In this document: one piece after another, positions 11,923 through 22,576 of the stretch
How positions within the stretch are numbered: the stretch's first letter is position 1
Layout of the letters: every line of letters starts with the position of its first letter
Source: Acidobacteriota bacterium
GTDB lineage: Bacteria; Acidobacteriota; Thermoanaerobaculia; Gp7-AA8
Reading direction: 5' to 3'
Length of the DNA: 64,000 nt
Assembly (NCBI GenBank): GCA_016184115.1
Contig: JACPDH010000080.1
Span: 6,116-70,115, forward strand
Notes under the pieces: model-generated
What the model was told of the DNA's origin: nothing
What the model saw: the letters and a program-made list of their open reading frames with translations, nothing else
Database searches by the model: none
Made by a program: the position numbers and the translations under genes

Positions 11923-13353
11923 TCACTTCACGTACATCTCGATCACGTTCTCGATCGCGCGGCTGCAGACGCGGCAGAAGCCGACGTCGTCGCGCGTGAA
12001 CATCATGCAGTCGGCTTGCGGGCGGTAGAGCCCCTTCGCTTCGTATCCCGCTCCCTCGAACGCGCCGACCTTGCCCGCGTGGGCAAACGAGCTCAGCAGC
12101 TTGCTGTCCCAGAGGAGCTCTTCGCGGAAGAGTGCGTCCATCTCGCTCTCGGGTGCGCCGGTCGCGCGCAGCTCGCGGCGCGTCTTCTGCACGGCGGCCG
12201 AGTGCTTCTCGTACTCCTCTTTCGGCCACGGCGTGGGGAGTGGCGTCCCGCTCGTCACGAGGTCCTTCCATTTGAGCTTCGCCGGGTCGCGCATCGCGGT
12301 AATGTTAGGCTCCCACGGCTCAGGGATGTCGCTCTTCCCCGTCTCATAGGCGACGTCCGACGTGTAGTACTCGTCGGCGAGTCCGGCAAAGTGGTGCCCG
12401 AACTCGTGGACGAAGACGTATTCGGTAAAGCCGGAGTCGACGCAGGTCGTCGCCTGGAAGTTGTAGATTCCTCCACCGCCATACTGCGCCTCGTTCACGA
12501 GGATCTCGACGAATTCGTACGGAGCCGCGGACGCGACGTCGCGCATCGCCTTATTGTCAAAGGTGAGGACGTAACGTTCAGAATCGAACGCGTTGTAGAC
12601 GGCAGACACGGGAGTCCGTCGCGGCTCACCGGTCCGCGGCTGATGCACACCCGTCATGCCCGACACGCTCTCGACGGCCCAGACATTGAAGTCGCCCTTG
12701 CGCGACTTGAATGGCTCGACGCGGAAGAGGGCATCGGTCAACCGCCGCGCGTCGGCGCGGAACTTCTCCATCTCCCCGGCGGTGTAGCCTTCTGCGATCA
12801 GCGCAAGGTCGACTTTCGACGATGAGGGGCCGTTCTCGAGAATCGCCGTGACGTTAGGCTTCAGCGGGAGCGCCGCGGAGTTCACGAATCGCGACGACGG
12901 ATCGATCGTCGTCGTCCATACCTCGCGAAAACTCGTCCGATCCTCGCCTCGCTTCCGGAGGACGACCTTGACCTTTCCTTTCGGCCAGGGGAAGCGGAGT
13001 GATTCGTGAAACGTGCGGTGCTCCTCCTTCGACTCGGGGGTGGTCACCCATTCGCCGAAGATCGACGAGAAGCCGCGCGAATAGACGAGCTCGCCGCTTG
13101 CCACGTCGGTGACCTCGAAGAAATACTCACCAGGCTTCGATGAATCGATGAGCTGTGTCGTCGAACCGGGCCACGCCCCATCGTTCACGATCTGGTCGAG
13201 CGCGACGATCTCCGTCCCCTTGCCTCCGGTGTGGAAGTAGTCGACCCGCATCGTCCGGCCGTCGAAGAGCCGCTCGAATCTCGCCGGGTCCGCGAATACT
13301 GATGAAGCAAATACGGCGACGGCGAACATCCACGCGAGCGAAAAGCGAACCAT
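11923..13353 (-). CDS. Secreted M64-family (IgA-peptidase-like) zinc metallopeptidase.
   Basis: N-terminal signal peptide. HExxH motif in VFVHEFGHHFAGLADEY. Confidence 0.75.
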   Translation of the reverse strand: MVRFSLAWMFAVAVFASSVFADPARFERLFDGRTMRVDYFHTGGKGTEIVALDQIVNDGAWPGSTTQLIDSSKPGEYFFEVTDVASGELVYSRGFSSIFGEWVTTPESKEEHRTFHESLRFPWPKGKVKVVLRKRGEDRTSFREVWTTTIDPSSRFVNSAALPLKPNVTAILENGPSSSKVDLALIAEGYTAGEMEKFRADARRLTDALFRVEPFKSRKGDFNVWAVESVSGMTGVHQPRTGEPRRTPVSAVYNAFDSERYVLTFDNKAMRDVASAAPYEFVEILVNEAQYGGGGIYNFQATTCVDSGFTEYVFVHEFGHHFAGLADEYYTSDVAYETGKSDIPEPWEPNITAMRDPAKLKWKDLVTSGTPLPTPWPKEEYEKHSAAVQKTRRELRATGAPESEMDALFREELLWDSKLLSSFAHAGKVGAFEGAGYEAKGLYRPQADCMMFTRDDVGFCRVCSRAIENVIEMYVK

Positions 13354-13432
13354 GTGAATCCTCCGTTACGTTGCTTTGGTTGACGGCCTCGGGCATCTTC
13401 CACCGCTCCGCGCGTTTTTACAATGGACGACG

Positions 13433-14467
13433 ATGTGCCGTAACACGATTCCCGCAGCGCTGCTCCTCGCCGTGCTCGCACCGCTCGCGCTTTCCCAGGA
13501 ACAGCGCGCGGATGAGACGATCACCGTGCAGCGCGTCATCATCGACGCGCACATCCTCAACGGCTCGGGCGAGCCGCTCGAGGATGTCAGGCCATCACAG
13601 CTCGAAGCGTTCATCGACGACCTGCCGGCGCGGGTCGAGGCGATCGAGTGGGTCGCGGATGACGAGGACGAGCCGGAGCCTCCGAAGCGCTCGTTTGGAG
13701 ACCCGGCGCCGAGGCTCTCGGCACTCGATCGCGCTCCACGAGGCCGGCGCATCGTTCTCTTCTTTCAGACTGACTTCCAGCGTGCCCGCATCCGCGGTCA
13801 CATTCGCATGGCTTCGCACGCGAAGGCCTTCATCCGTACGCTTCAGCCTGACGACCAGATCGCCGTGGTCTCGTTCGACTCGAAGCTCAAGCTCTGGCAG
13901 GACTTCACGAGCAATGTCGACGATCTCGACCGCGCGATCGACCGGACGAAGGAGATCGCCGAGGTGGAATGGCGCGATCTCGGCGTCTACCCTTCGCTCG
14001 CCGCCTCTCTCGACCCAGCAGACGCGGCCGACGCCGCGACCGTGGAGATGGGCCTTCGCCGCATCGGTGAAGCGCTTCAGGACATCGACGGGCGCAAGAC
14101 ACTCGTCATGTTCGGATACGGAATCGGCGTCTACGCGGGCAACGGCGTCGTCAGCTTTCCCGGCTACGCGGAAGCGCGACTCGCACTCGAGACTGCCCGG
14201 ACCTCGGTGTTTGCGCTCGACGTCAGCGACGCCGACTGGCACACCCTCGAGGGCGGGCTCGAGATGATCGCCGAAGATACAGGCGGTTTCTACGTGAAGA
14301 CACACGAGTTCGCGGGCAGGGCGGTGAAGAAACTCCACCGCGCGATCGCGGGCCATTACGAGATCGTGCTGATCAAGCCCGTTGAGCACCATGGCATTCA
14401 CGCGGTCCGCGTGAACGCCAAGATTCGTGGAGCGGAGGTCTTCACCAAGAAGACGTTCACCGACTGA
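13433..14467 (+). CDS. Secreted von Willebrand factor type A (VWA) domain protein, of the VWFA-related acidobacterial type.
   Basis: Signal peptide. VWA-like core (RIVLFFQTD…, DQIAVVSFDS…); this architecture is recalled from TIGR03436-type proteins. Confidence 0.65.
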   Translation: MCRNTIPAALLLAVLAPLALSQEQRADETITVQRVIIDAHILNGSGEPLEDVRPSQLEAFIDDLPARVEAIEWVADDEDEPEPPKRSFGDPAPRLSALDRAPRGRRIVLFFQTDFQRARIRGHIRMASHAKAFIRTLQPDDQIAVVSFDSKLKLWQDFTSNVDDLDRAIDRTKEIAEVEWRDLGVYPSLAASLDPADAADAATVEMGLRRIGEALQDIDGRKTLVMFGYGIGVYAGNGVVSFPGYAEARLALETARTSVFALDVSDADWHTLEGGLEMIAEDTGGFYVKTHEFAGRAVKKLHRAIAGHYEIVLIKPVEHHGIHAVRVNAKIRGAEVFTKKTFTD

Positions 14468-14536
14468 TTGGCCTTTGGCCTGCTTTTCACTACACTTCGC
14501 CCTCTACTTCTCTCTCTTCGTACCGGAGGTGCGACC

Positions 14537-15661
14537 ATGACCGTAACTCAGGATGCCCCCACGGGCACCGCGCTCAATCAGAATCCTCTCAAGCTGAAAC
14601 GGGTGCATCACGTGGAGTTCTGGGTCGGAAACGCGAAACAGGCCGCGTTCTACTACCGGAAGGCGTTCGGATTTTCACAGCTCGCCTACCGCGGTCTGGA
14701 GACGGGAGCGCGCGACGCGGCCTCATACGTTCTCGCTCAGGGAAAGGTCCGCTTCGTGCTGACGACACCACTGACTCCCGAGCATCCGGCCGGGGAGCAC
14801 ATCCGAAACCACGGCGACGGCGTACGCGACATCGCACTCGAAGTCGAGGACACCGATTTCGCGTTTCACGAGGCGGTCCGTCGCGGCGCCACGCCTGTCG
14901 TCGCGCCGCACGACGTGACCGACGCGAACGGCACGGTCCGTCACGCCGCGATTCAGACCTACGGCGATACGATCCACTCGTTCATCGCGGCAAAGGCCTA
15001 CGCGGGCGACTTCCTCCCCGGCTTCGCACCAGCGCCGGTCGCGGAACCTTCGACTGGAATCGTGATGGTCGACCACATGGTCGGCAACGTCGAGCTCGGC
15101 AAGATGAACGTCTGGGCGGAGTGGTACCAGAAAGTCATGGGGTTCTCGCGCTACATCACGTTCGACGACAAGGACATCTCGACGGAGTATTCGGCGCTGA
15201 TGTCGATCGTCATGTCCGACGACAACAAGGTCGTGAAGTTCCCGATCAATGAACCGGCTGAGGGAAAGAAGAAGAGCCAGATCCAGGAGTATCTCGAGGC
15301 GTACCGGGGAGCCGGCGTACAGCACGTCGCGCTGCTCTGTGGTGACGTGATCGAGACGGTGTCGAAGCTGCACGAGAACGGCGTCGAGTTTCTGCGCGTC
15401 CCCGACAGTTACTACGACGAGCTGCCGGCGCGCGTTGGCGAGATCTCCGAGCCATTGGAGACCTTGAAAAGGCTCGGCATCCTCGTCGACCGCGACGACG
15501 AAGGCTACCTGCTGCAGATCTTCACCAAGCCGGTCGAAGACAGGCCGACCGTCTTCTACGAGATCATCCAGCGCAAGGGCTGCCGCGGATTCGGAAAAGG
15601 AAATTTCAAGGCACTCTTCGTTTCGATCGAGCACGAACAGGAGAAGCGGGGAAACTTGTGA
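14537..15661 (+). CDS. hppD: 4-hydroxyphenylpyruvate dioxygenase.
   Basis: [17 protein letters not shown], two VOC/glyoxalase-type repeats, and the C-terminal [11 protein letters not shown]. Confidence 0.9.
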
Positions 15662-16944
15662 CCGATTACCAGTCCGGCTTCGCCAACGAATTCGCCACCG
15701 AGTCGATCCCCGGCGCGCTACCCATCGGACAGAATGCGCCCCAGGCGGCCCCGTTAGGCCTCTACGCCGAGCAGCTGAGTGGCACGGCGTTCACGATGCC
15801 GCGCACGGCGAATCGGCGGTCGTGGCTCTACCGCATACGCCCCGCGGTGAAACACGGTCCGTTCGAGCCGGTCCCGACCGGACTCGTCCGCGGTACACCA
15901 TTCGACGAGCTCCCGCCGTCGCCTAACCAGCTTCGATGGGACCCGGTCGCGATCCCGTCAGAGGCCACAGACTTCATCGATGGACTCGTCACGATCTGCG
16001 GTAATGGCGATATCAACACATTCGCCGGAATGGCGGCGCACGTCTACCGCGCGAATCGGTCGATGAACGGGCGCTTCTTCTACGACGCCGACGGGGAGCT
16101 CCTCTTCGTGCCCGAGATGGGCCGGCTTCGCCTCGCGACCGAGCTCGGTGTACTCGACGTCGCGCCGGGAGAGATCGCCGTCATTCCGCGCGGAGTCCGT
16201 TTCCGTGTCGAGCTTTTCGACGCGACTGCGCGTGGCTACCTCTGCGAGAACTTTGGCGCTCTCTTTCGTCCTCCCGATCTCGGTCCGATCGGCGCGAACG
16301 GCCTTGCGAGCTCTCGCGACTTTCTGACTCCTGTCGCCGCGTTCGAGGATCGTGACGGCGACTTCGAGCTCGTCGCGAAATATCAGGGAGCGCTCTTCAG
16401 CGCACCAATCGACCACTCACCGCTCGACGTCGTCGCGTGGCACGGCAACTACGCGCCTTACAAGTACGACCTCGGCCGCTTCAACACGATCAACAGCGTG
16501 TCGTTCGACCATCCCGATCCTTCGATCTTCACCGTCCTGACTTCGCCGACCGACACGCCAGGCACCGCGAATGTCGACTTCGTCATCTTTCCGCCGCGAT
16601 GGATGGTCGCCGAGCACACCTTTCGCCCGCCTTACTTCCACCGCAACGTGATGAGTGAGTACATGGGGCTCGTGCTCGGGAAGTACGACGCGAAGGAAGA
16701 AGGCTTCGTCCCCGGCGGCGCGAGTCTGCACAACTGCATGTCGGGACATGGTCCCGACGCCGAGACATTCGCGCAGGCAAGCACGGCGACGCTCGAGCCG
16801 CAGCGTTACCGCGACACGCTCGCGTTCATGTTCGAGACGCGCTTCGCGCTGAAACCGACGAAGTTCGCGATGGAAACGGAACACCGGCAGCGGGAGTACT
16901 TCCGTTGCTGGGACGGACTGAAGAAGAACTTCGATCCGCGTTGA
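15658..16944 (+). CDS. hmgA: Homogentisate 1,2-dioxygenase.
   Basis: The N-terminus [23 protein letters not shown](A)PQ is a hallmark of HmgA. The GTG start overlaps the hppD stop. Confidence 0.9.
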
Positions 16945-16985
16945 AGACCAGGCCACGGCTGAACCGAGAAGGCAGAAAGGGCGCG

Positions 16986-17864
16986 ATGTCTGAACCTCTC
17001 AGAACGCTGCTGGCGCGACTCATCGACTACGCCGGACTCTTCCCTCCGGCCGCTCTGCCGATGGGGACGACGGTGTCGAACTACGCGCGCTACCGTAGCT
17101 CGGGTGAACGATGGATGCTCGGGCGGCTGATCGTCCCCGTCGCTCGTTTCGGCGAGCTCGAGCCCGCGCTGGCGAGTGTAGCCACAACGCGTGCCGAGCC
17201 GTGGCAGATCAGCGCGCTCACGGGCGCCGACCTGATCGCGGATCTCGACGAGATCGCCGCATTCAACGCGCGCAATCGCGGGCGCGCGATCGTCGACGCG
17301 ATCGAAACGAAAGTTGCGACGAGCGAGGGGATCGCGGCGGCCTCGGCAATCATCCCGCCCGAGATCGAAACCTACTTCGAGCTTCCACTCGCTCTCGATC
17401 CCGACGCACTCGTCGCGGCGATTGCAGGATCGGGACGCCGGGCGAAAATGCGGACAGGCGGCGTCACCGAGGACGCCTTTCCGCCTGCGGCACACATCGC
17501 GCGATTCATCGCTCGTTGTGCGGCGCACGGCGTTGCATTCAAAGCCACCGCAGGGCTGCATCACCCGCTTCGCTGCGTCCGGCCGCTCACCTACGAGCCT
17601 CGCAGTGCGACCGGCATGATGCATGGTTTTCTCAATGTCTTCCTTTCCGCGGCGCTGATCATCGGCGGCAGCCCCGTGATGCTCGCCGAAGAGCTTCTAG
17701 AAGAGACCGATCCCGCGACACTGACATTCGGCGACGACGCGATTCGCTGGCGCGGCAACAGCATCGCGACCAACGCGCTCGCCGCGGCGCGGGCGCTCGC
17801 CATTTCGTTCGGATCGTGCTCGTTCGACGAGCCAGTACGCGAGCTCCATGAGATGGCGAGCTGA
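16986..17864 (+). CDS. Conserved hypothetical protein of unknown family. It occupies the slot where maleylacetoacetate isomerase usually sits.
   Basis: 292 aa with good codon bias and an RBS (gaaagg). It lies between hmgA and fahA. No GST-like motif was recognised. Confidence 0.55.
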   Translation: MSEPLRTLLARLIDYAGLFPPAALPMGTTVSNYARYRSSGERWMLGRLIVPVARFGELEPALASVATTRAEPWQISALTGADLIADLDEIAAFNARNRGRAIVDAIETKVATSEGIAAASAIIPPEIETYFELPLALDPDALVAAIAGSGRRAKMRTGGVTEDAFPPAAHIARFIARCAAHGVAFKATAGLHHPLRCVRPLTYEPRSATGMMHGFLNVFLSAALIIGGSPVMLAEELLEETDPATLTFGDDAIRWRGNSIATNALAAARALAISFGSCSFDEPVRELHEMAS

Positions 17865-17982
17865 ACGCTGATATCAGACCGTATTACCGAGTCGGAGCGG
17901 GTGTCGCGGCTGCGTCGAGCCAGAAGCGTCACGCTCCTCTATAGTTCACCTTTCAGCCGATCACGATCTCACGAGCGAATCT

Positions 17983-19290
17983 ATGACGACGCATCTCGAC
18001 CACACGCATGACCCATCGCTTCGCAGTTTCGTCGACAGTGCCAACGACCCGTCGACCGACTTCCCCATCCAAAACCTGCCGCTCGGCGTCTTCGTACGCG
18101 GCACGGGGCGCCATGTCGGCATTGCGATCGGAAGATCGGTGCTCGACGTCACGAGCGCGGCAAGGGAGCTCTTCGCCGGCGATACCGCGACGGCAGCCGA
18201 GGCATGCGCAACCGGTTCGCTCAACGCGCTGATGGCTCTCGGTCGTCCAGCAGCGCGTGCGCTTCGCAGACGCGCAAGCGAGCTCCTTCGGCACGGAAGC
18301 GGCGAGCGTGCGGCGGTCGAGCGCCACCTGATTCCGATGCGCGATGTGCAAATGCTTCTGCCCGCCACGATTGGCGACTACACGGACTTCTACGCGTCGG
18401 TACACCACGCGACGAATGTCGGGAGCATGTTCCGTCCCGACAATCCACTGCTGCCTAACTATAAGTGGGTTCCGATCGGCTATCACGGCCGCGCATCATC
18501 GATCGTCGCGAGCGGAACTCCCGTCGTGCGGCCGAAAGGCCAGACGAAGGACGACGCAAGCGCCTCGCCGGCCTTCGGCCCCTCGAAGCGGCTCGACTAC
18601 GAGCTCGAGGTCGGATGCTTCGTGGCGGGACGGAATGCGCTCGGCGAAACGCTGCCGATCGCCGATGCCGACGACCGCATCTTCGGACTATGCCTTCTGA
18701 ACGACTGGTCCGCGCGTGATATCCAGGCGTGGGAGTACCAGCCACTCGGGCCGTTTCTCGCGAAGAACTTTGCGACGTCGATCTCGCCGTGGGTTGTCAC
18801 GCTCGATGCGCTGGCGCCGTTCCGCGCGCCGCTCGCGCCACGCGCCGAGGGCGATCCGCGCCCCCTTCCGTACCTTGACGGTGAGACTGACCGTAGCGCC
18901 GGCGGTTTCGCCGTCACGCTCGAAGTCGCAATTTCCTCGCGAAGAATGCGCGAGTCCGATATGCCCGCAACGGTCTTGAGCCGCAGCTCGCTGCTCGACG
19001 TCTACTGGAGCTTCGCGCAGATGCTCGCGCATCACGCGAGCGGAGGCTGCAACCTGGAGCCGGGAGATCTCGTCGGCAGCGGTACCGTCTCCGGCGAAGC
19101 GAAGGACGCGCGCGGATGTCTCCTCGAGTTGACATGGAGAGGCAGCGACCCGATCTCGCTGCTTTCGGGTGAGCAGCGCAAGTTCCTCGAAGACGGAGAC
19201 GAAGTCGTCCTGCGTGGTTGGTGCGAACGCGAGGGTTACGCTCGCATCGGATTCGGCGAGTGCGTCGGGGAAATCGTGCCGGCGCGGTAA
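17983..19290 (+). CDS. fahA: Fumarylacetoacetase (fumarylacetoacetate hydrolase).
   Basis: The N-terminal FAH-N region (FPIQNLPLGVF) and the C-terminal FAH fold motifs are present. ~435 aa, typical of FahA. Confidence 0.85.
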   Translation: MTTHLDHTHDPSLRSFVDSANDPSTDFPIQNLPLGVFVRGTGRHVGIAIGRSVLDVTSAARELFAGDTATAAEACATGSLNALMALGRPAARALRRRASELLRHGSGERAAVERHLIPMRDVQMLLPATIGDYTDFYASVHHATNVGSMFRPDNPLLPNYKWVPIGYHGRASSIVASGTPVVRPKGQTKDDASASPAFGPSKRLDYELEVGCFVAGRNALGETLPIADADDRIFGLCLLNDWSARDIQAWEYQPLGPFLAKNFATSISPWVVTLDALAPFRAPLAPRAEGDPRPLPYLDGETDRSAGGFAVTLEVAISSRRMRESDMPATVLSRSSLLDVYWSFAQMLAHHASGGCNLEPGDLVGSGTVSGEAKDARGCLLELTWRGSDPISLLSGEQRKFLEDGDEVVLRGWCEREGYARIGFGECVGEIVPAR

Positions 19291-19314: not shown

Positions 19315-19433
19315 GGCAGAAAGCAGACGCCAGAAGGCACAAGTCAGAAGGCGAATCGGAGAACGCTAATTCACGCTCCGAAATCTGATATCTGCCATTC
19401 TCCGTTTCTGCCTTCTGGTTTCCGCCTTCTGCC
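19315..19433. terminator. Inverted heptamer arrays, (NNCAGAA)x7 then a spacer then (TTCTGNN)x5, forming a long hairpin between the convergent fahA and cupin genes. Probably a bidirectional terminator.
   Basis: ggcagaaagcagacgccagaaggcacaagtcagaaggcgaatcggagaacg … cattctccgtttctgccttctggtttccgccttctgcc. Confidence 0.6.
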
Positions 19434-19792
19434 TAAATCCGTTCCGGCTCCGCGACTGTCCGATCGCCACCTGCGTTGCCGGTGTTGAGCGTCGAAGCTG
19501 GCTCGAAGAGAAGCACAGAGACCTCAGCCTCCGCGACAGGCCGATGCTCCACTCCGCGCGGAACGACGATGAACTCACCCTCGGCGATCGGCACTTGTCG
19601 GTCGCGGAACTCCATCACGAATCGACCTGCGAGGACGAGGAACATCTCGTCTTCGCGCTCATGCTGATGCCAGACGAACTCGCCCTGAAACTTCACGAGC
19701 TTCACATGTTGGCCGTTGAGCTCGGCGACGATCTTCGGATCCCAGTGCGTCGAGAATATCGCCAGCTTCTGCGCGAGGTTGATCTTCTCCAT
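19433..19792 (-). CDS. Cupin-domain protein.
   Basis: Cupin 2 motif region (HQHEREDEMFLVLAGRF…VVPRGVEH). The start is at ATG 19792 (MEKINL). Confidence 0.65.
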   Translation of the reverse strand: MEKINLAQKLAIFSTHWDPKIVAELNGQHVKLVKFQGEFVWHQHEREDEMFLVLAGRFVMEFRDRQVPIAEGEFIVVPRGVEHRPVAEAEVSVLLFEPASTLNTGNAGGDRTVAEPERI

Positions 19793-19797
19793 ATGCT

Positions 19798-20415
19798 TCA
19801 CTTCACAGTCGGCACGGATGGGGCTGACAGACGCGTCGTCGGAGTCGGGTACTCGCGACGATCGACCAGTTCCGCGAGCGGAACCTCCCATACGTCGATC
19901 TTCTGATCGCCCACGAACGCTGGGATGTCGAGCTTCTTCCTCTCCACTCCTCGGCCGGCAACACGCACCATCGCCTCTTCAGGCTTGAAGAGGACGACCT
20001 GCGTGCCTTTGATCAAGAGCCCCGGGAGAAGGACGTCGCCGTTTCCCGGGATCTGCCGGAGCTTGAGCTGCGCGTCGGGGAGTCCGGGAGGCTGAAAATT
20101 GATGATGGAGTCCCCCGGCGGAACGTCGAGCATGATGAAGGCGCCTGTCTCCGCGACCCCTCCCGAGACGTACTGGACGCCCTCGACCGAGATCGCCGTG
20201 TCGCGAAAAATCGCGTATTTGCGCTGAATCTGCAGGTATGGGTCGGTCACCATGAAATTGTCGGTCGGTGGCAGCTCGACGTCGGCGATCCACCCGCGGA
20301 CGCTCACCGGTGAGCTTCTCGAGGGGCCTTCGTTCTTCGGAGCTGAGCAGGCTGCCAGGCCGAGGGAAACCACGAGTATGAGAACGAAAGCTGTGCGTCG
20401 GGTGGTCATCGTCAT
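19798..20415 (-). CDS. Lipoprotein of unknown function.
   Basis: Signal peptide plus lipobox (LGLAAC). Same strand as the downstream cupin gene, separated by 6 bp. Confidence 0.5.
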   Translation of the reverse strand: MTMTTRRTAFVLILVVSLGLAACSAPKNEGPSRSSPVSVRGWIADVELPPTDNFMVTDPYLQIQRKYAIFRDTAISVEGVQYVSGGVAETGAFIMLDVPPGDSIINFQPPGLPDAQLKLRQIPGNGDVLLPGLLIKGTQVVLFKPEEAMVRVAGRGVERKKLDIPAFVGDQKIDVWEVPLAELVDRREYPTPTTRLSAPSVPTVK

Positions 20416-20507
20416 CGGCCTCCGTGCCCGGTGCCGCAAACCACGCGGCGGGGGCACCAGCCCCTATAATAGACGGGCACTCCCGAGAGGCGACCAACAA
20501 CTACGCC

Positions 20508-21542
20508 ATGAGCGAAACTGACACTCCGCGATTCAAAGTACGTCTTCCATCGTTCCGCGATTTCCCCGCGAGGCTCGGGCGCATCGGCTGCGCCTTCCTC
20601 GCGGTCCTCGTTCCGTTGATCTTCGTCCGGAGCTGCTTCATTTCGTACGTCCCCCCCTCGGAGATCGGCCTGCGCCAGATCGCCTTCGGCGCCGGCAAGG
20701 GGCTCCAGAAGAACGTGATCGAGTCGGGATACCGCCGGCAGATCCGAGGCTACGAGACGATCCGCACGTTCCCGCGCGACGTCCAGATCCTCGAGTTCAC
20801 GAACAGCGAGTCGGAGCGCTCGCCCGATCACCGGACGATGCCCGCCGTCAACGTTCCGACGGTCGACGGCTACCCGGTACTCGTCGACGTCACCGTTCTC
20901 TATCGAATCAAAGATCCTTACCTCGTCGTGTCGAAGTTCGGTTTCGGGAACACGTACGAGGACAGCGTCGTGATCCGCTTCACCGACGCCACGGTCAAGC
21001 AGTTCATGGGGGCTCTCAAGGCCGAGGAGTTCTACCACCCGTCGCGGCTCGCGAAGGCCGTGCAGATGCGAGCCCGTCTCGCCGCGATCTTCAAGGAGAA
21101 CGGGCTCGAGCTGATGGACGTCCTCGTCCGCCAGTACGACTACCCCGACACGTTCCAGGCGCTGACCGAGCAGAAGAAGATTCAGGATCAGTCCGTCCTG
21201 ACCAACCAGGCGCTCGCCAAACAGGCCGAGGTCGACACGCGGCTCAAGCAGGTCGCCGCAGAGGGGCGGAACCTGGTCAACGTAAAGGGAGCCGAGTTCG
21301 AAGCGATGATGACGGAGGTTGGGGCGAACCGCGACCTCTACGAGCGGCAGAAACGCGCGGAAGCCGACCTTCTCGTCAAGAGTGCGGAAGCCTCCGGAAC
21401 CGAGGCGATCAACCGCGCAATGGAAGGCGCTGGCTCCGACAAACTGCTTCGTCTGCGCAAAGGCCTCGCACTCCTGAATGCGATCAAGGGCCCGATTTAC
21501 ATCACCGAAGACCCGACCGACGTCGGGAAGCTGATGAAGTGA
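20508..21542 (+). CDS. SPFH/band-7 (prohibitin/stomatin-like) domain membrane protein.
   Basis: N-terminal TM helix, SPFH-like core, and a C-terminal coiled-coil-like region. Confidence 0.7.
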   Translation: MSETDTPRFKVRLPSFRDFPARLGRIGCAFLAVLVPLIFVRSCFISYVPPSEIGLRQIAFGAGKGLQKNVIESGYRRQIRGYETIRTFPRDVQILEFTNSESERSPDHRTMPAVNVPTVDGYPVLVDVTVLYRIKDPYLVVSKFGFGNTYEDSVVIRFTDATVKQFMGALKAEEFYHPSRLAKAVQMRARLAAIFKENGLELMDVLVRQYDYPDTFQALTEQKKIQDQSVLTNQALAKQAEVDTRLKQVAAEGRNLVNVKGAEFEAMMTEVGANRDLYERQKRAEADLLVKSAEASGTEAINRAMEGAGSDKLLRLRKGLALLNAIKGPIYITEDPTDVGKLMK

Positions 21543-21556
21543 GGAAGAGGCGAACG

Positions 21557-22576
21557 ATGAAACGACTGCTGCCGCTCGCCGCTCTGCTGCTCGCCATACC
21601 GACGATGACTTCGTGCACGCCGCACACCACGGAGGCGACCGAGGTGGGCGTTCGCTTCAACAAGATCACGAAAAACATGGAGCTCGCGCAGCCTGGCGCG
21701 ACTTACTTCTTTGTGCCGATCCTCAACGAATGGCGCACCTTCGACGTGTCGACACAGAACCTGACGATGGTCGCACAGATCGGTGACGGCGACCGGCAGG
21801 TCAAAGACGACCTGAGATTCAAGACGCGCGACGGCAACGACATCGAGACCGACGTCACCGTTCGCTGGAGGATCGACCCGACGAAAGCCGATCACCTCTG
21901 GCGCCTCGTCGGCCCCAACACCGACAAGATCCGCGACCGACTCGTCCGCCCGCTGGCGCGGACTTACGTTCGCGACGTCCTGAACCGGCTCGACTCGGAG
22001 GAGTTCTACAACCCCGATCTCCGGTTCGGCGCCGCGAACGACGCGACGAAGCTGCTCGCGACTCACCTCGCTCCCTCGGGGGTCGTCGTCGAGCAGGTGA
22101 TCCTGGGCAACTTCGCGTTCAAACCCGAGTACCAGAAGCTCATCAACCAGCGCAAGGAAGCGGAGAAGAACGCAGAAAAACTCGAGGCCGAGATTCTCGC
22201 GACGAGCGAAGCGAACAAGGCCGCGCTGCAGCAGAAGGTCGCCGAGATGACCGAGAAGCTGACGACGGCGCAGGGCGACTTCGAGCGCGCGAAGAAGACT
22301 GCCGACGCGTACCTGGTCCGCCGCCAGCAGGAGGCCACCGCGACCGTCGCTGAAAAGAAGGCAGTCGCCGAAGGAATCCGGCGCGAGCGCGCGGCGCTCA
22401 ACAGCAGCGCAGGTGACGCCTACGTCACTCTGCAATTGATCGATGCGCTCCAGAAGAAGGAGATCCGCCAGATCCCGCAGCTTCCAGGTAGCGGCAACGT
22501 GATCATCGACGGAAACAAGCTGCTGGAACAACTCGGCGTGATCCGTTACAAGGACGCGGCGAAGGGCGACAACTGA
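21557..22576 (+). CDS. SPFH/band-7 domain lipoprotein (paralogue partner of the previous gene).
   Basis: Signal peptide plus lipobox (TMTSC). SPFH core and a long coiled-coil. Translationally adjacent to the first SPFH gene. Confidence 0.7.
   Translation: MKRLLPLAALLLAIPTMTSCTPHTTEATEVGVRFNKITKNMELAQPGATYFFVPILNEWRTFDVSTQNLTMVAQIGDGDRQVKDDLRFKTRDGNDIETDVTVRWRIDPTKADHLWRLVGPNTDKIRDRLVRPLARTYVRDVLNRLDSEEFYNPDLRFGAANDATKLLATHLAPSGVVVEQVILGNFAFKPEYQKLINQRKEAEKNAEKLEAEILATSEANKAALQQKVAEMTEKLTTAQGDFERAKKTADAYLVRRQQEATATVAEKKAVAEGIRRERAALNSSAGDAYVTLQLIDALQKKEIRQIPQLPGSGNVIIDGNKLLEQLGVIRYKDAAKGDN

Follow-up and report, generated by a model that had tools for sequence, protein, structure and literature searches.

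A 64,000-nucleotide stretch of DNA from an Acidobacteriota bacterium (contig JACPDH010000080.1; the whole stretch is referred to here as the window) carries a homogentisate (tyrosine) catabolic cluster in which hppD, hmgA and fahA are accompanied by a gene for a 292-amino acid (aa) protein of an unnamed family, here designated X. Based on a hole in the pathway and on gene context, we consider it probable that X is a maleylacetoacetate isomerase from outside the glutathione S-transferase (GST) group that functions independently of glutathione and serves as a non-orthologous replacement of MaiA. The homogentisate route of tyrosine and phenylalanine breakdown is textbook metabolism, and its isomerase step is known only as a glutathione-dependent GST. 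For the long-missing glutathione-independent isomerase of tyrosine breakdown, no stronger candidate than the X family has yet emerged. In the proposed pathway, HmgA would open homogentisate to maleylacetoacetate (cis), X would turn this product into fumarylacetoacetate (trans) without glutathione, and FahA, which is mostly encoded directly downstream of X and often with near-zero or overlapping spacing, would split fumarylacetoacetate into fumarate and acetoacetate. The four genes of the cluster are as follows.

14537-15661, + strand: hppD, 4-hydroxyphenylpyruvate dioxygenase; TIGR01263 at 460 bits (cut-off 277), Pfam Glyoxalase and HPPD_N; an upstream TTG at 14468 is a possible alternative start
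15658-16944, + strand: hmgA, homogentisate 1,2-dioxygenase; GTG start, TIGR01015 at 689 bits (cut-off 511), HgmA_N and HgmA_C
16986-17864, + strand: X, 292 aa, unnamed family, candidate glutathione-independent maleylacetoacetate isomerase
17983-19290, + strand: fahA, two-domain fumarylacetoacetase; TIGR01266 at 546 bits (cut-off 375), FAA_hydrolase_N and FAA_hydrolase

The hppD, hmgA and fahA products all scored above the NCBIfam equivalog cut-offs with concordant Pfam matches, as expected of a homogentisate cluster, and the four genes are co-directional with successive spacings of -4, 41 and 118 nt in the open reading frame (ORF) table. These scores and coordinates bear out a preliminary description of the window, which had placed the three pathway genes on one strand, tightly spaced, with a 4-bp overlap of hppD and hmgA. 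That description had also set X in the 'maiA position' between hmgA and fahA; the term holds for the order of the pathway and not for a fixed order of genes, as canonical clusters vary in their placement of maiA.

The 292-aa ORF had further been described as a non-GST protein of no recognised family, and database searches agreed. X had no match in Pfam or NCBIfam at E ≤ 0.1, including no GST_N or GST_C domain and no TIGR01262, and no sequence relative in the PDB by single-sequence (phmmer) or profile search. When Pfam was scanned at E ≤ 10 with X and 44 homologues, X gave no match and the homologues gave only scattered chance matches of single members. The family itself is large: at least 7,994 homologues were found by word-indexed search (one an identical protein from an Acidobacteria metagenome-assembled genome, MAG), with relatives named only 'hypothetical protein', and a profile search of 1.84 billion representatives returned 5,788 clusters at 50% identity with E ≤ 1e-3, of which 2,798 had E ≤ 1e-30. 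A search seeded with the Priestia homologue extended the family across cultured Firmicutes (Priestia, Paenibacillus, Brevibacillus, Peribacillus, Aneurinibacillus tyrosinisolvens and alkaliphilic bacilli), where the relatives are labelled 'hypothetical' or 'uncharacterized' save for one stray UniRef name. Literature searches aimed at the X family found no description of it, the GapMind catabolism paper was silent on the isomerase step, and a search on a guessed hmgA neighbourhood of S. coelicolor found nothing. Thus, neither Pfam, NCBIfam and the PDB nor the searchable literature describes the X family, its fold for maleylacetoacetate isomerisation or its probable mechanism. The homogentisate pathway and the isomerase reaction are already known, and X would be a non-homologous enzyme for this known step.

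Linkage of X to fahA and distribution relative to GST-zeta

X was found immediately upstream of fahA on all of five unrelated long contigs, three with hppD-hmgA and two without. A scan of one genome per GTDB species gave at least 589 confirmed matches, of which the best 80 loci were analysed; these span Acidobacteriota, Gemmatimonadota, Chloroflexota (Herpetosiphonaceae), Bacteroidota, Ignavibacteria, Planctomycetota and Latescibacteria. fahA was detected in 75 of these 80 loci, and three of the five loci without it end at a contig edge. X lies directly upstream of fahA on the same strand in 68 of the 75; in these the median extrapolated gap is 0 nt, and in 53 loci it is 30 nt or less. In five of the seven non-adjacent loci, X and fahA are parted only by inserted toxin-antitoxin or nucleotidyltransferase cassettes and not by pathway genes. 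The pairing persists down to approximately 30% identity, and members of the family stand directly in front of fahA in at least 10 bacterial phyla. The preliminary description had looked to conservation of this ORF with the cluster in related genomes. Such conservation was found for fahA, to which X is tied across many phyla, but hmgA is present in the same locus in only 25 of the 75, and the pairing persists in 50 of the 75 with neither hmgA nor hppD nearby. Thus, the conserved unit is X-fahA.

Insertions seem to recur in the X-fahA spacer. In five unrelated MAGs, extra genes are placed exactly there, namely toxin-antitoxin pairs (PIN-like, Phd/ParE-like) and a nucleotidyltransferase-like gene of 230 aa (L049, 6906-7711; L056, 6849-7508; L071, 1960-2890; L060, 6911-7606; L064, 6919-8192). 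In another locus (L061, 6876-10418), X is separated from an apparently fragmentary fahA by genes for a Ser/Thr kinase and an RCC1-like repeat protein, and the cluster may be decaying. A variant order of X, a 32%-identical HppD-like gene, hmgA and fahA was observed in L110 (41-4568), where X is off fahA yet in the same operon.

So as not to anchor on X, metagenome contigs were scanned for the fahA motif NDWSARDIQ, and 109 loci with a strong fahA were obtained. By this approach, X was detected in 27 of the 109 loci (directly upstream of fahA in 24 of these), and in 19 of the 62 loci with at least 900 nt of upstream sequence. A GST-zeta gene was detected in nine of the 109, eight within 40 nt of fahA and one approximately 1 kb away. 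No locus of the 109 carried both. The GSTZ1 probe used for GST-zeta was validated against PDB 1fw1 and picks up bacterial MaiA at 1e-38 to 1e-49; tblastn with this probe found no GST-zeta gene in the 64-kb window, and none was found in the X-bearing loci, over the window and flanks of approximately 6-10 kb. When the sample was pooled with the species loci, none of the 102 X-linked fahA loci but nine of the 82 X-free ones had an adjacent GST-zeta gene (Fisher p = 5e-4, in a test that ignores the phylogenetic non-independence of lineages). That X and GST-zeta are never found together beside fahA is the pattern expected of alternatives for one job and not of an add-on.

Biochemical work of the 1970s-80s on Gram-positive bacteria, Bacillus megaterium among them, described homogentisate and gentisate pathways that need no glutathione. 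Homologues of X were found in cultured bacteria by tblastn against plasmids, all annotated by PGAP as 'hypothetical protein'. The gene orders are hppD-X-fahA-aminotransferase-hmgA-amino-acid permease in Priestia megaterium (the same cluster occurs on the chromosome beside an AsnC regulator), hppD-X-fahA-hmgA-phenylalanine hydroxylase in Paenibacillus spongiae, hppD-hmgA-X-fahA next to Lrp in Tsukamurella tyrosinosolvens, and hmgA-X-fahA-CoA transferase A-B in Streptomyces NBC_01213. In these four, the isomerase is the sole step missing on the way from the aromatic amino acid to fumarate and acetoacetate (or acetoacetyl-CoA), and X is the sole gene without a role. Accessions of X homologues are WP_235565656.1 (P. 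megaterium), WP_068742395.1 (T. tyrosinosolvens) and WP_331721661.1 (Streptomyces). Rhodococcus rhodochrous pNit (HmgA-like cupin-X-fahA) and a Streptomyces NBC_01420 plasmid (the X-fahA core, with no hmgA found in the locus) do not carry a complete operon, and in the cyanobacterium Kovacikia minuta hppD and an hmgA-like gene are divergent from X-fahA. Actinomycetes and Firmicutes use mycothiol or bacillithiol in place of glutathione (PMC6178380), and bacillithiol-pathway genes have been reported also in Bacteroidetes and Acidobacteria (PMC6336425); in organisms of this kind, the cofactor of a GST-zeta enzyme would be lacking. For Bacillus anthracis, which is without glutathione, a published study states that its genome has no identifiable gene for a maleylacetoacetate isomerase (PMC4457819).

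The Gram-positive clusters and some MAG clusters carry a shorter, divergent HmgA that is 25-28% identical to that of the window and is named 'homogentisate 1,2-dioxygenase domain-containing' or 'cupin' (L216, 5814-7007; L217, 5806-7008; L215, 4779-5933; also L074, L092, L143, L182 and L193).

Predicted fold, conserved residues and a possible mechanism

X is a conserved protein that is confidently predicted to form a (beta/alpha)8 barrel with invariant polar residues on its strands. The fold check proposed in the preliminary description was carried out with AlphaFold2 and Foldseek and returned a TIM barrel. The model, built from a 45-sequence alignment, has a pLDDT of 95.6 and a pTM of 0.92 and displays an eight-stranded beta/alpha barrel with an additional hairpin, helices and a small sheet inserted between beta7 and beta8 (approximately 55 residues). 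Foldseek against the PDB gave weak generic TIM-barrel matches (best E 4.7e-4, TM approximately 0.4) with class I aldolases first (transaldolase, DERA, KDO8PS). The structures most similar to the predicted barrel are those of DERA.

Among 108 representatives at ≤ 50% identity, nine residues are found in every sequence (D14, E107, E132, R156, K186, T188, H192, H193 and C278), and K154 is found in 107. With the exception of H193, this core is shared by homologues from Actinobacteria, Firmicutes and a cyanobacterium that are 26-39% identical. C278 is the sole invariant cysteine; C178 is found in 95 of the 108. By DSSP on the model, D14 is placed on beta1, E107 on beta4, E132 on beta5, K154 and R156 on beta6, and K186 and T188 on beta7, with H192 just past beta7 and C278 just past beta8. 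Such positions, on or just past the strands, form the usual catalytic face of TIM barrels. The principal motifs are listed below.

17025-17048, + strand: D14-YAGLFPP, residues 14-21, predicted beta1 (DSSP on the model); D14, A16, P20 and P21 invariant in the 108 representatives and in 70 diverse homologues
17445-17453, + strand: K154-M-R156, predicted beta6; K154 in 107 and R156 in 108 of 108, both kept in Gram-positive homologues
17538-17573, + strand: FKATAGLHHPLR, residues 185-196; K186 and T188 on predicted beta7, H192, H193 and R196 in the next loop; K186, T188 and H192 invariant in all alignments
17808-17825, + strand: FGSCSF, residues 275-280, C-terminal end of predicted beta8; C278 in 108 of 108 and invariant in Firmicutes, Actinobacteria and the cyanobacterium

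Its TIM barrel, with strands that carry invariant polar residues, gives X the look of an enzyme rather than of a passive accessory. The preliminary description had left both options standing, a non-GST, glutathione-independent isomerase analogue or a pathway accessory protein; the linkage to fahA and the hole in the pathway support the former, with the reaction itself being what we infer from them.

In DERA, K167 is on beta6, K201 on beta7 and D102 on beta4. K154, K186 and E107 of X, all invariant or nearly so, are predicted on the same three strands, and this DERA-like placement is treated here as a lead and not as a result. From it a speculative mechanism can be drawn, in which we place about half of the confidence that we place in the function. 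K154, helped by K186 and E107, would form an iminium at the C4 ketone, in the manner of a class I aldolase; the iminium would activate C2, to which the invariant Cys278 at the end of beta8, or water, would add; the C2-C3 bond would then rotate and the adduct would collapse by elimination. The two carboxylates may be held by R156, R196 and R269. A built-in nucleophile of this type would explain how one family could serve lineages that rely on mycothiol, bacillithiol or glutathione. In its boldest form, which we advance only tentatively and regard as doubtful, the proposal is that X founds a new class of cofactor-free isomerase on a DERA-like class I aldolase barrel, acting by a lysine iminium at C4 and Michael addition of Cys278, and that this class lies behind the glutathione-independent pathways of Gram-positive bacteria and occurs in roughly a quarter to a third of the environmental fahA loci sampled.

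Alternative functions and relation to known systems

Several observations weigh against the assignment of X as the isomerase, besides the phylogenetic non-independence and the local scope of the GST-zeta comparisons noted above. In the fahA-anchored metagenome sample alone, the exclusivity of X and GST-zeta is not significant (p = 0.11). Among the 46 loci of this sample with both flanks, 11 carry X, eight carry GST and 27 carry neither; adjacency of an isomerase gene to fahA is thus not obligatory, and X could do something else there. X is also present in a cyanobacterium, a producer of glutathione, so that the family is not confined to glutathione-free lineages. A gene annotated as MDMPI_N ('maleylpyruvate isomerase N-terminal domain', MDMPI/DinB type) is located on a Streptomyces plasmid (L219, 863-1519, - strand) 4 kb upstream of X-fahA, with unrelated genes between. 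Finally, hhalign of the X profile against DERA gave non-significant E values of 0.22 and 0.12 with a register that differed between runs, in a comparison where the DERA profile set was of ≥ 80% identity and too close for a good profile (the DeoC sequence was verified against PDB 1jcl). Likeness of X to DERA is therefore claimed at the level of the fold only, and not as homology or residue equivalence.

Several of the loci with neither gene are hmgA-fahA pairs (L094, L103, L149), in which the isomerase is either encoded elsewhere or of a third type. An ORF that follows fahA in L094 was discarded as an Arg-rich, wrong-frame artefact.

One alternative is that X does isomerise maleylacetoacetate but remains dependent on a low-molecular-weight thiol (bacillithiol, mycothiol, cysteine or glutathione), with Cys278 and the lysines merely binding or activating that thiol. 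To our knowledge, every maleylacetoacetate or maleylpyruvate isomerase characterised to date relies on a thiol cofactor, be it glutathione, mycothiol or L-cysteine (the work on NagL, MDMPI and BagL), and this precedent speaks for a thiol in X as well. So does the fact that many X-bearing lineages are reported or predicted producers of bacillithiol or mycothiol (PMC6336425, PMC6178380). We nevertheless regard a thiol-dependent X as unlikely: the same invariant residues are found across Actinobacteria, Firmicutes, a cyanobacterium and Acidobacteria, whose thiols differ chemically, which is easier to reconcile with a built-in nucleophile, and neither Pfam nor the model gives X a thioredoxin-like or DinB-like thiol-binding domain.

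No greater probability is attached to a second alternative, that X acts on another compound near FahA. This compound could be acetoacetate (e.g., by Schiff-base decarboxylation), maleate, if maleylacetoacetate is hydrolysed directly, or a reactive by-product (succinylacetoacetate, fumarylacetone or maleylacetone, for instance), in which case the role of X would be detoxifying. Schiff-base chemistry on beta-keto acids in general would suit a barrel of class I aldolase type in which two lysines are buried, direct hydrolysis of maleylacetoacetate has been reported for some Bacillus species in work cited in PMC4457819, and the many fahA loci with neither X nor GST point the same way. Against such roles, hmgA, X and fahA, when adjacent, are always ordered hmgA-X-fahA in the listed loci, which is the order of the pathway; the operon of Streptomyces NBC_01213 already has a CoA transferase for acetoacetate; the FahA of the window is a full-scoring fumarylacetoacetase equivalog; and the absence of GST-zeta from beside fahA wherever X is present is better accounted for by X as the isomerase.

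A third alternative draws on HmgX of Aspergillus fumigatus, which like X is an unannotated protein of approximately 250-300 aa in a tyrosine cluster and is required for the pathway (PMC3203155). By description, the two are set apart, as HmgX is ascomycete-specific, is encoded beside hppD, serves the HppD step and coexists with maiA, whereas X is bacterial and tied to fahA. That X might by analogy assist FahA or the pathway without catalysis of its own (for instance as a scaffold, chaperone or channelling subunit), as HmgX is needed for HppD activity, is very unlikely: although near-zero or overlapping spacing to fahA suggests co-translation and tyrosine clusters already offer one example of an unexplained accessory protein in HmgX (256 aa, no known domains; PMC3203155), X tracks fahA and not hppD (it adjoins fahA in 68 of 75 loci, with hppD and hmgA absent from 50 of 75, or two thirds), approximately ten charged or nucleophilic residues on its barrel strands are invariant across at least 10 phyla as is typical of an active site, and fungal HmgX clusters retain maiA (PMC3203155) whereas none was found in the X loci over the window and flanks covered.

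As a candidate glutathione-independent isomerase, X can be set beside several known systems. GST-zeta MaiA (also HmgC or GSTZ1; TIGR01262) shares with X the proposed reaction and pathway position, and maiA too is often beside fahA (nine loci). The two proteins have no sequence similarity; MaiA is a thioredoxin-like GST that needs glutathione as nucleophile, and X is predicted to be a TIM barrel. The maleylpyruvate isomerases of the gentisate pathway include NagL (glutathione), MDMPI (mycothiol, DinB fold) and BagL (L-cysteine). Like the activity proposed for X, these catalyse cis-trans isomerisation of a maleyl-keto acid, and they are precedents for non-orthologous replacement in bacteria that lack glutathione. 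They differ from X in substrate (maleylpyruvate), in fold and in their need of a free thiol, and X matches none of their Pfam models; in particular, no MDMPI_N or DinB match was found for X or 44 homologues at E ≤ 10, the model being a TIM barrel instead. Maleate cis-trans isomerase, of the Asp/Glu racemase superfamily, is cofactor-free and adds an enzyme cysteine to the double bond. It is the closest mechanistic analogue to the role proposed for Cys278, although its fold is unrelated, its substrate is different, and it has two catalytic cysteines against the one invariant cysteine of X; an Asp/Glu racemase fold with a catalytic cysteine pair is absent from the TIM-barrel model. DERA (DeoC, PF01791) is 10-14% identical to X, which has no PF01791 match, an extra ~55 residues between beta7 and beta8, a different gene context and no sign of aldolase chemistry.

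If the assignment is correct, a family so far uncharacterised, which counts at least 5,800 clusters at 50% identity, has no Pfam or NCBIfam model and is annotated by PGAP as 'hypothetical', would acquire a function. Pathway reconstructions would be repaired for Acidobacteriota, Gemmatimonadota, Bacteroidota, Chloroflexota, Planctomycetota, Firmicutes and Actinobacteria, a long-standing pathway gap would be closed by a very large and widespread family, and a new catalytic solution for cis-trans isomerisation would be added. The question is directly testable, as X homologues occur in cultivable strains of Priestia, Paenibacillus, Streptomyces, Rhodococcus and Tsukamurella.

Gene calls and neighbouring genes

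The ATG at 16986 is taken as the start of X; a purine-rich GAAAGG lies just 5' of it, and the start agrees with the N-termini of homologues. A longer form of X from a TTG at 16905 was unsupported. No terminator-like site was found in the intergenic gaps of the cluster, the sole + strand site (16810-16824) falling within hmgA, and the count of terminator-like sites was lower than expected from shuffled sequence.

Two individual members of the family stand out by label or length. The UniRef name 'Glutamate--cysteine ligase' on homologue P0432 is probably a stray label, since the remaining source names read 'hypothetical' or 'uncharacterized' throughout. The N-terminus of a 545-aa 'fusion' (P0134) is hydrophobic and resembles that of a membrane protein; the fusion is probably a gene-call artefact and was set aside as uninformative.

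Upstream of the cluster are a gene for an M64 (IgA-peptidase-like) metallopeptidase (11923-13353, - strand) and a gene with a weak VWA match (13376-14467, + strand), and beyond the cluster are two tandem Band_7/SPFH genes (20424-22576, + strand); none of these has an evident link to tyrosine catabolism. A small cupin gene (19433-19891, - strand; Cupin_2, E 1e-12) faces the 3' end of fahA in convergent orientation and is also present in the near-identical contigs L213 and L214.

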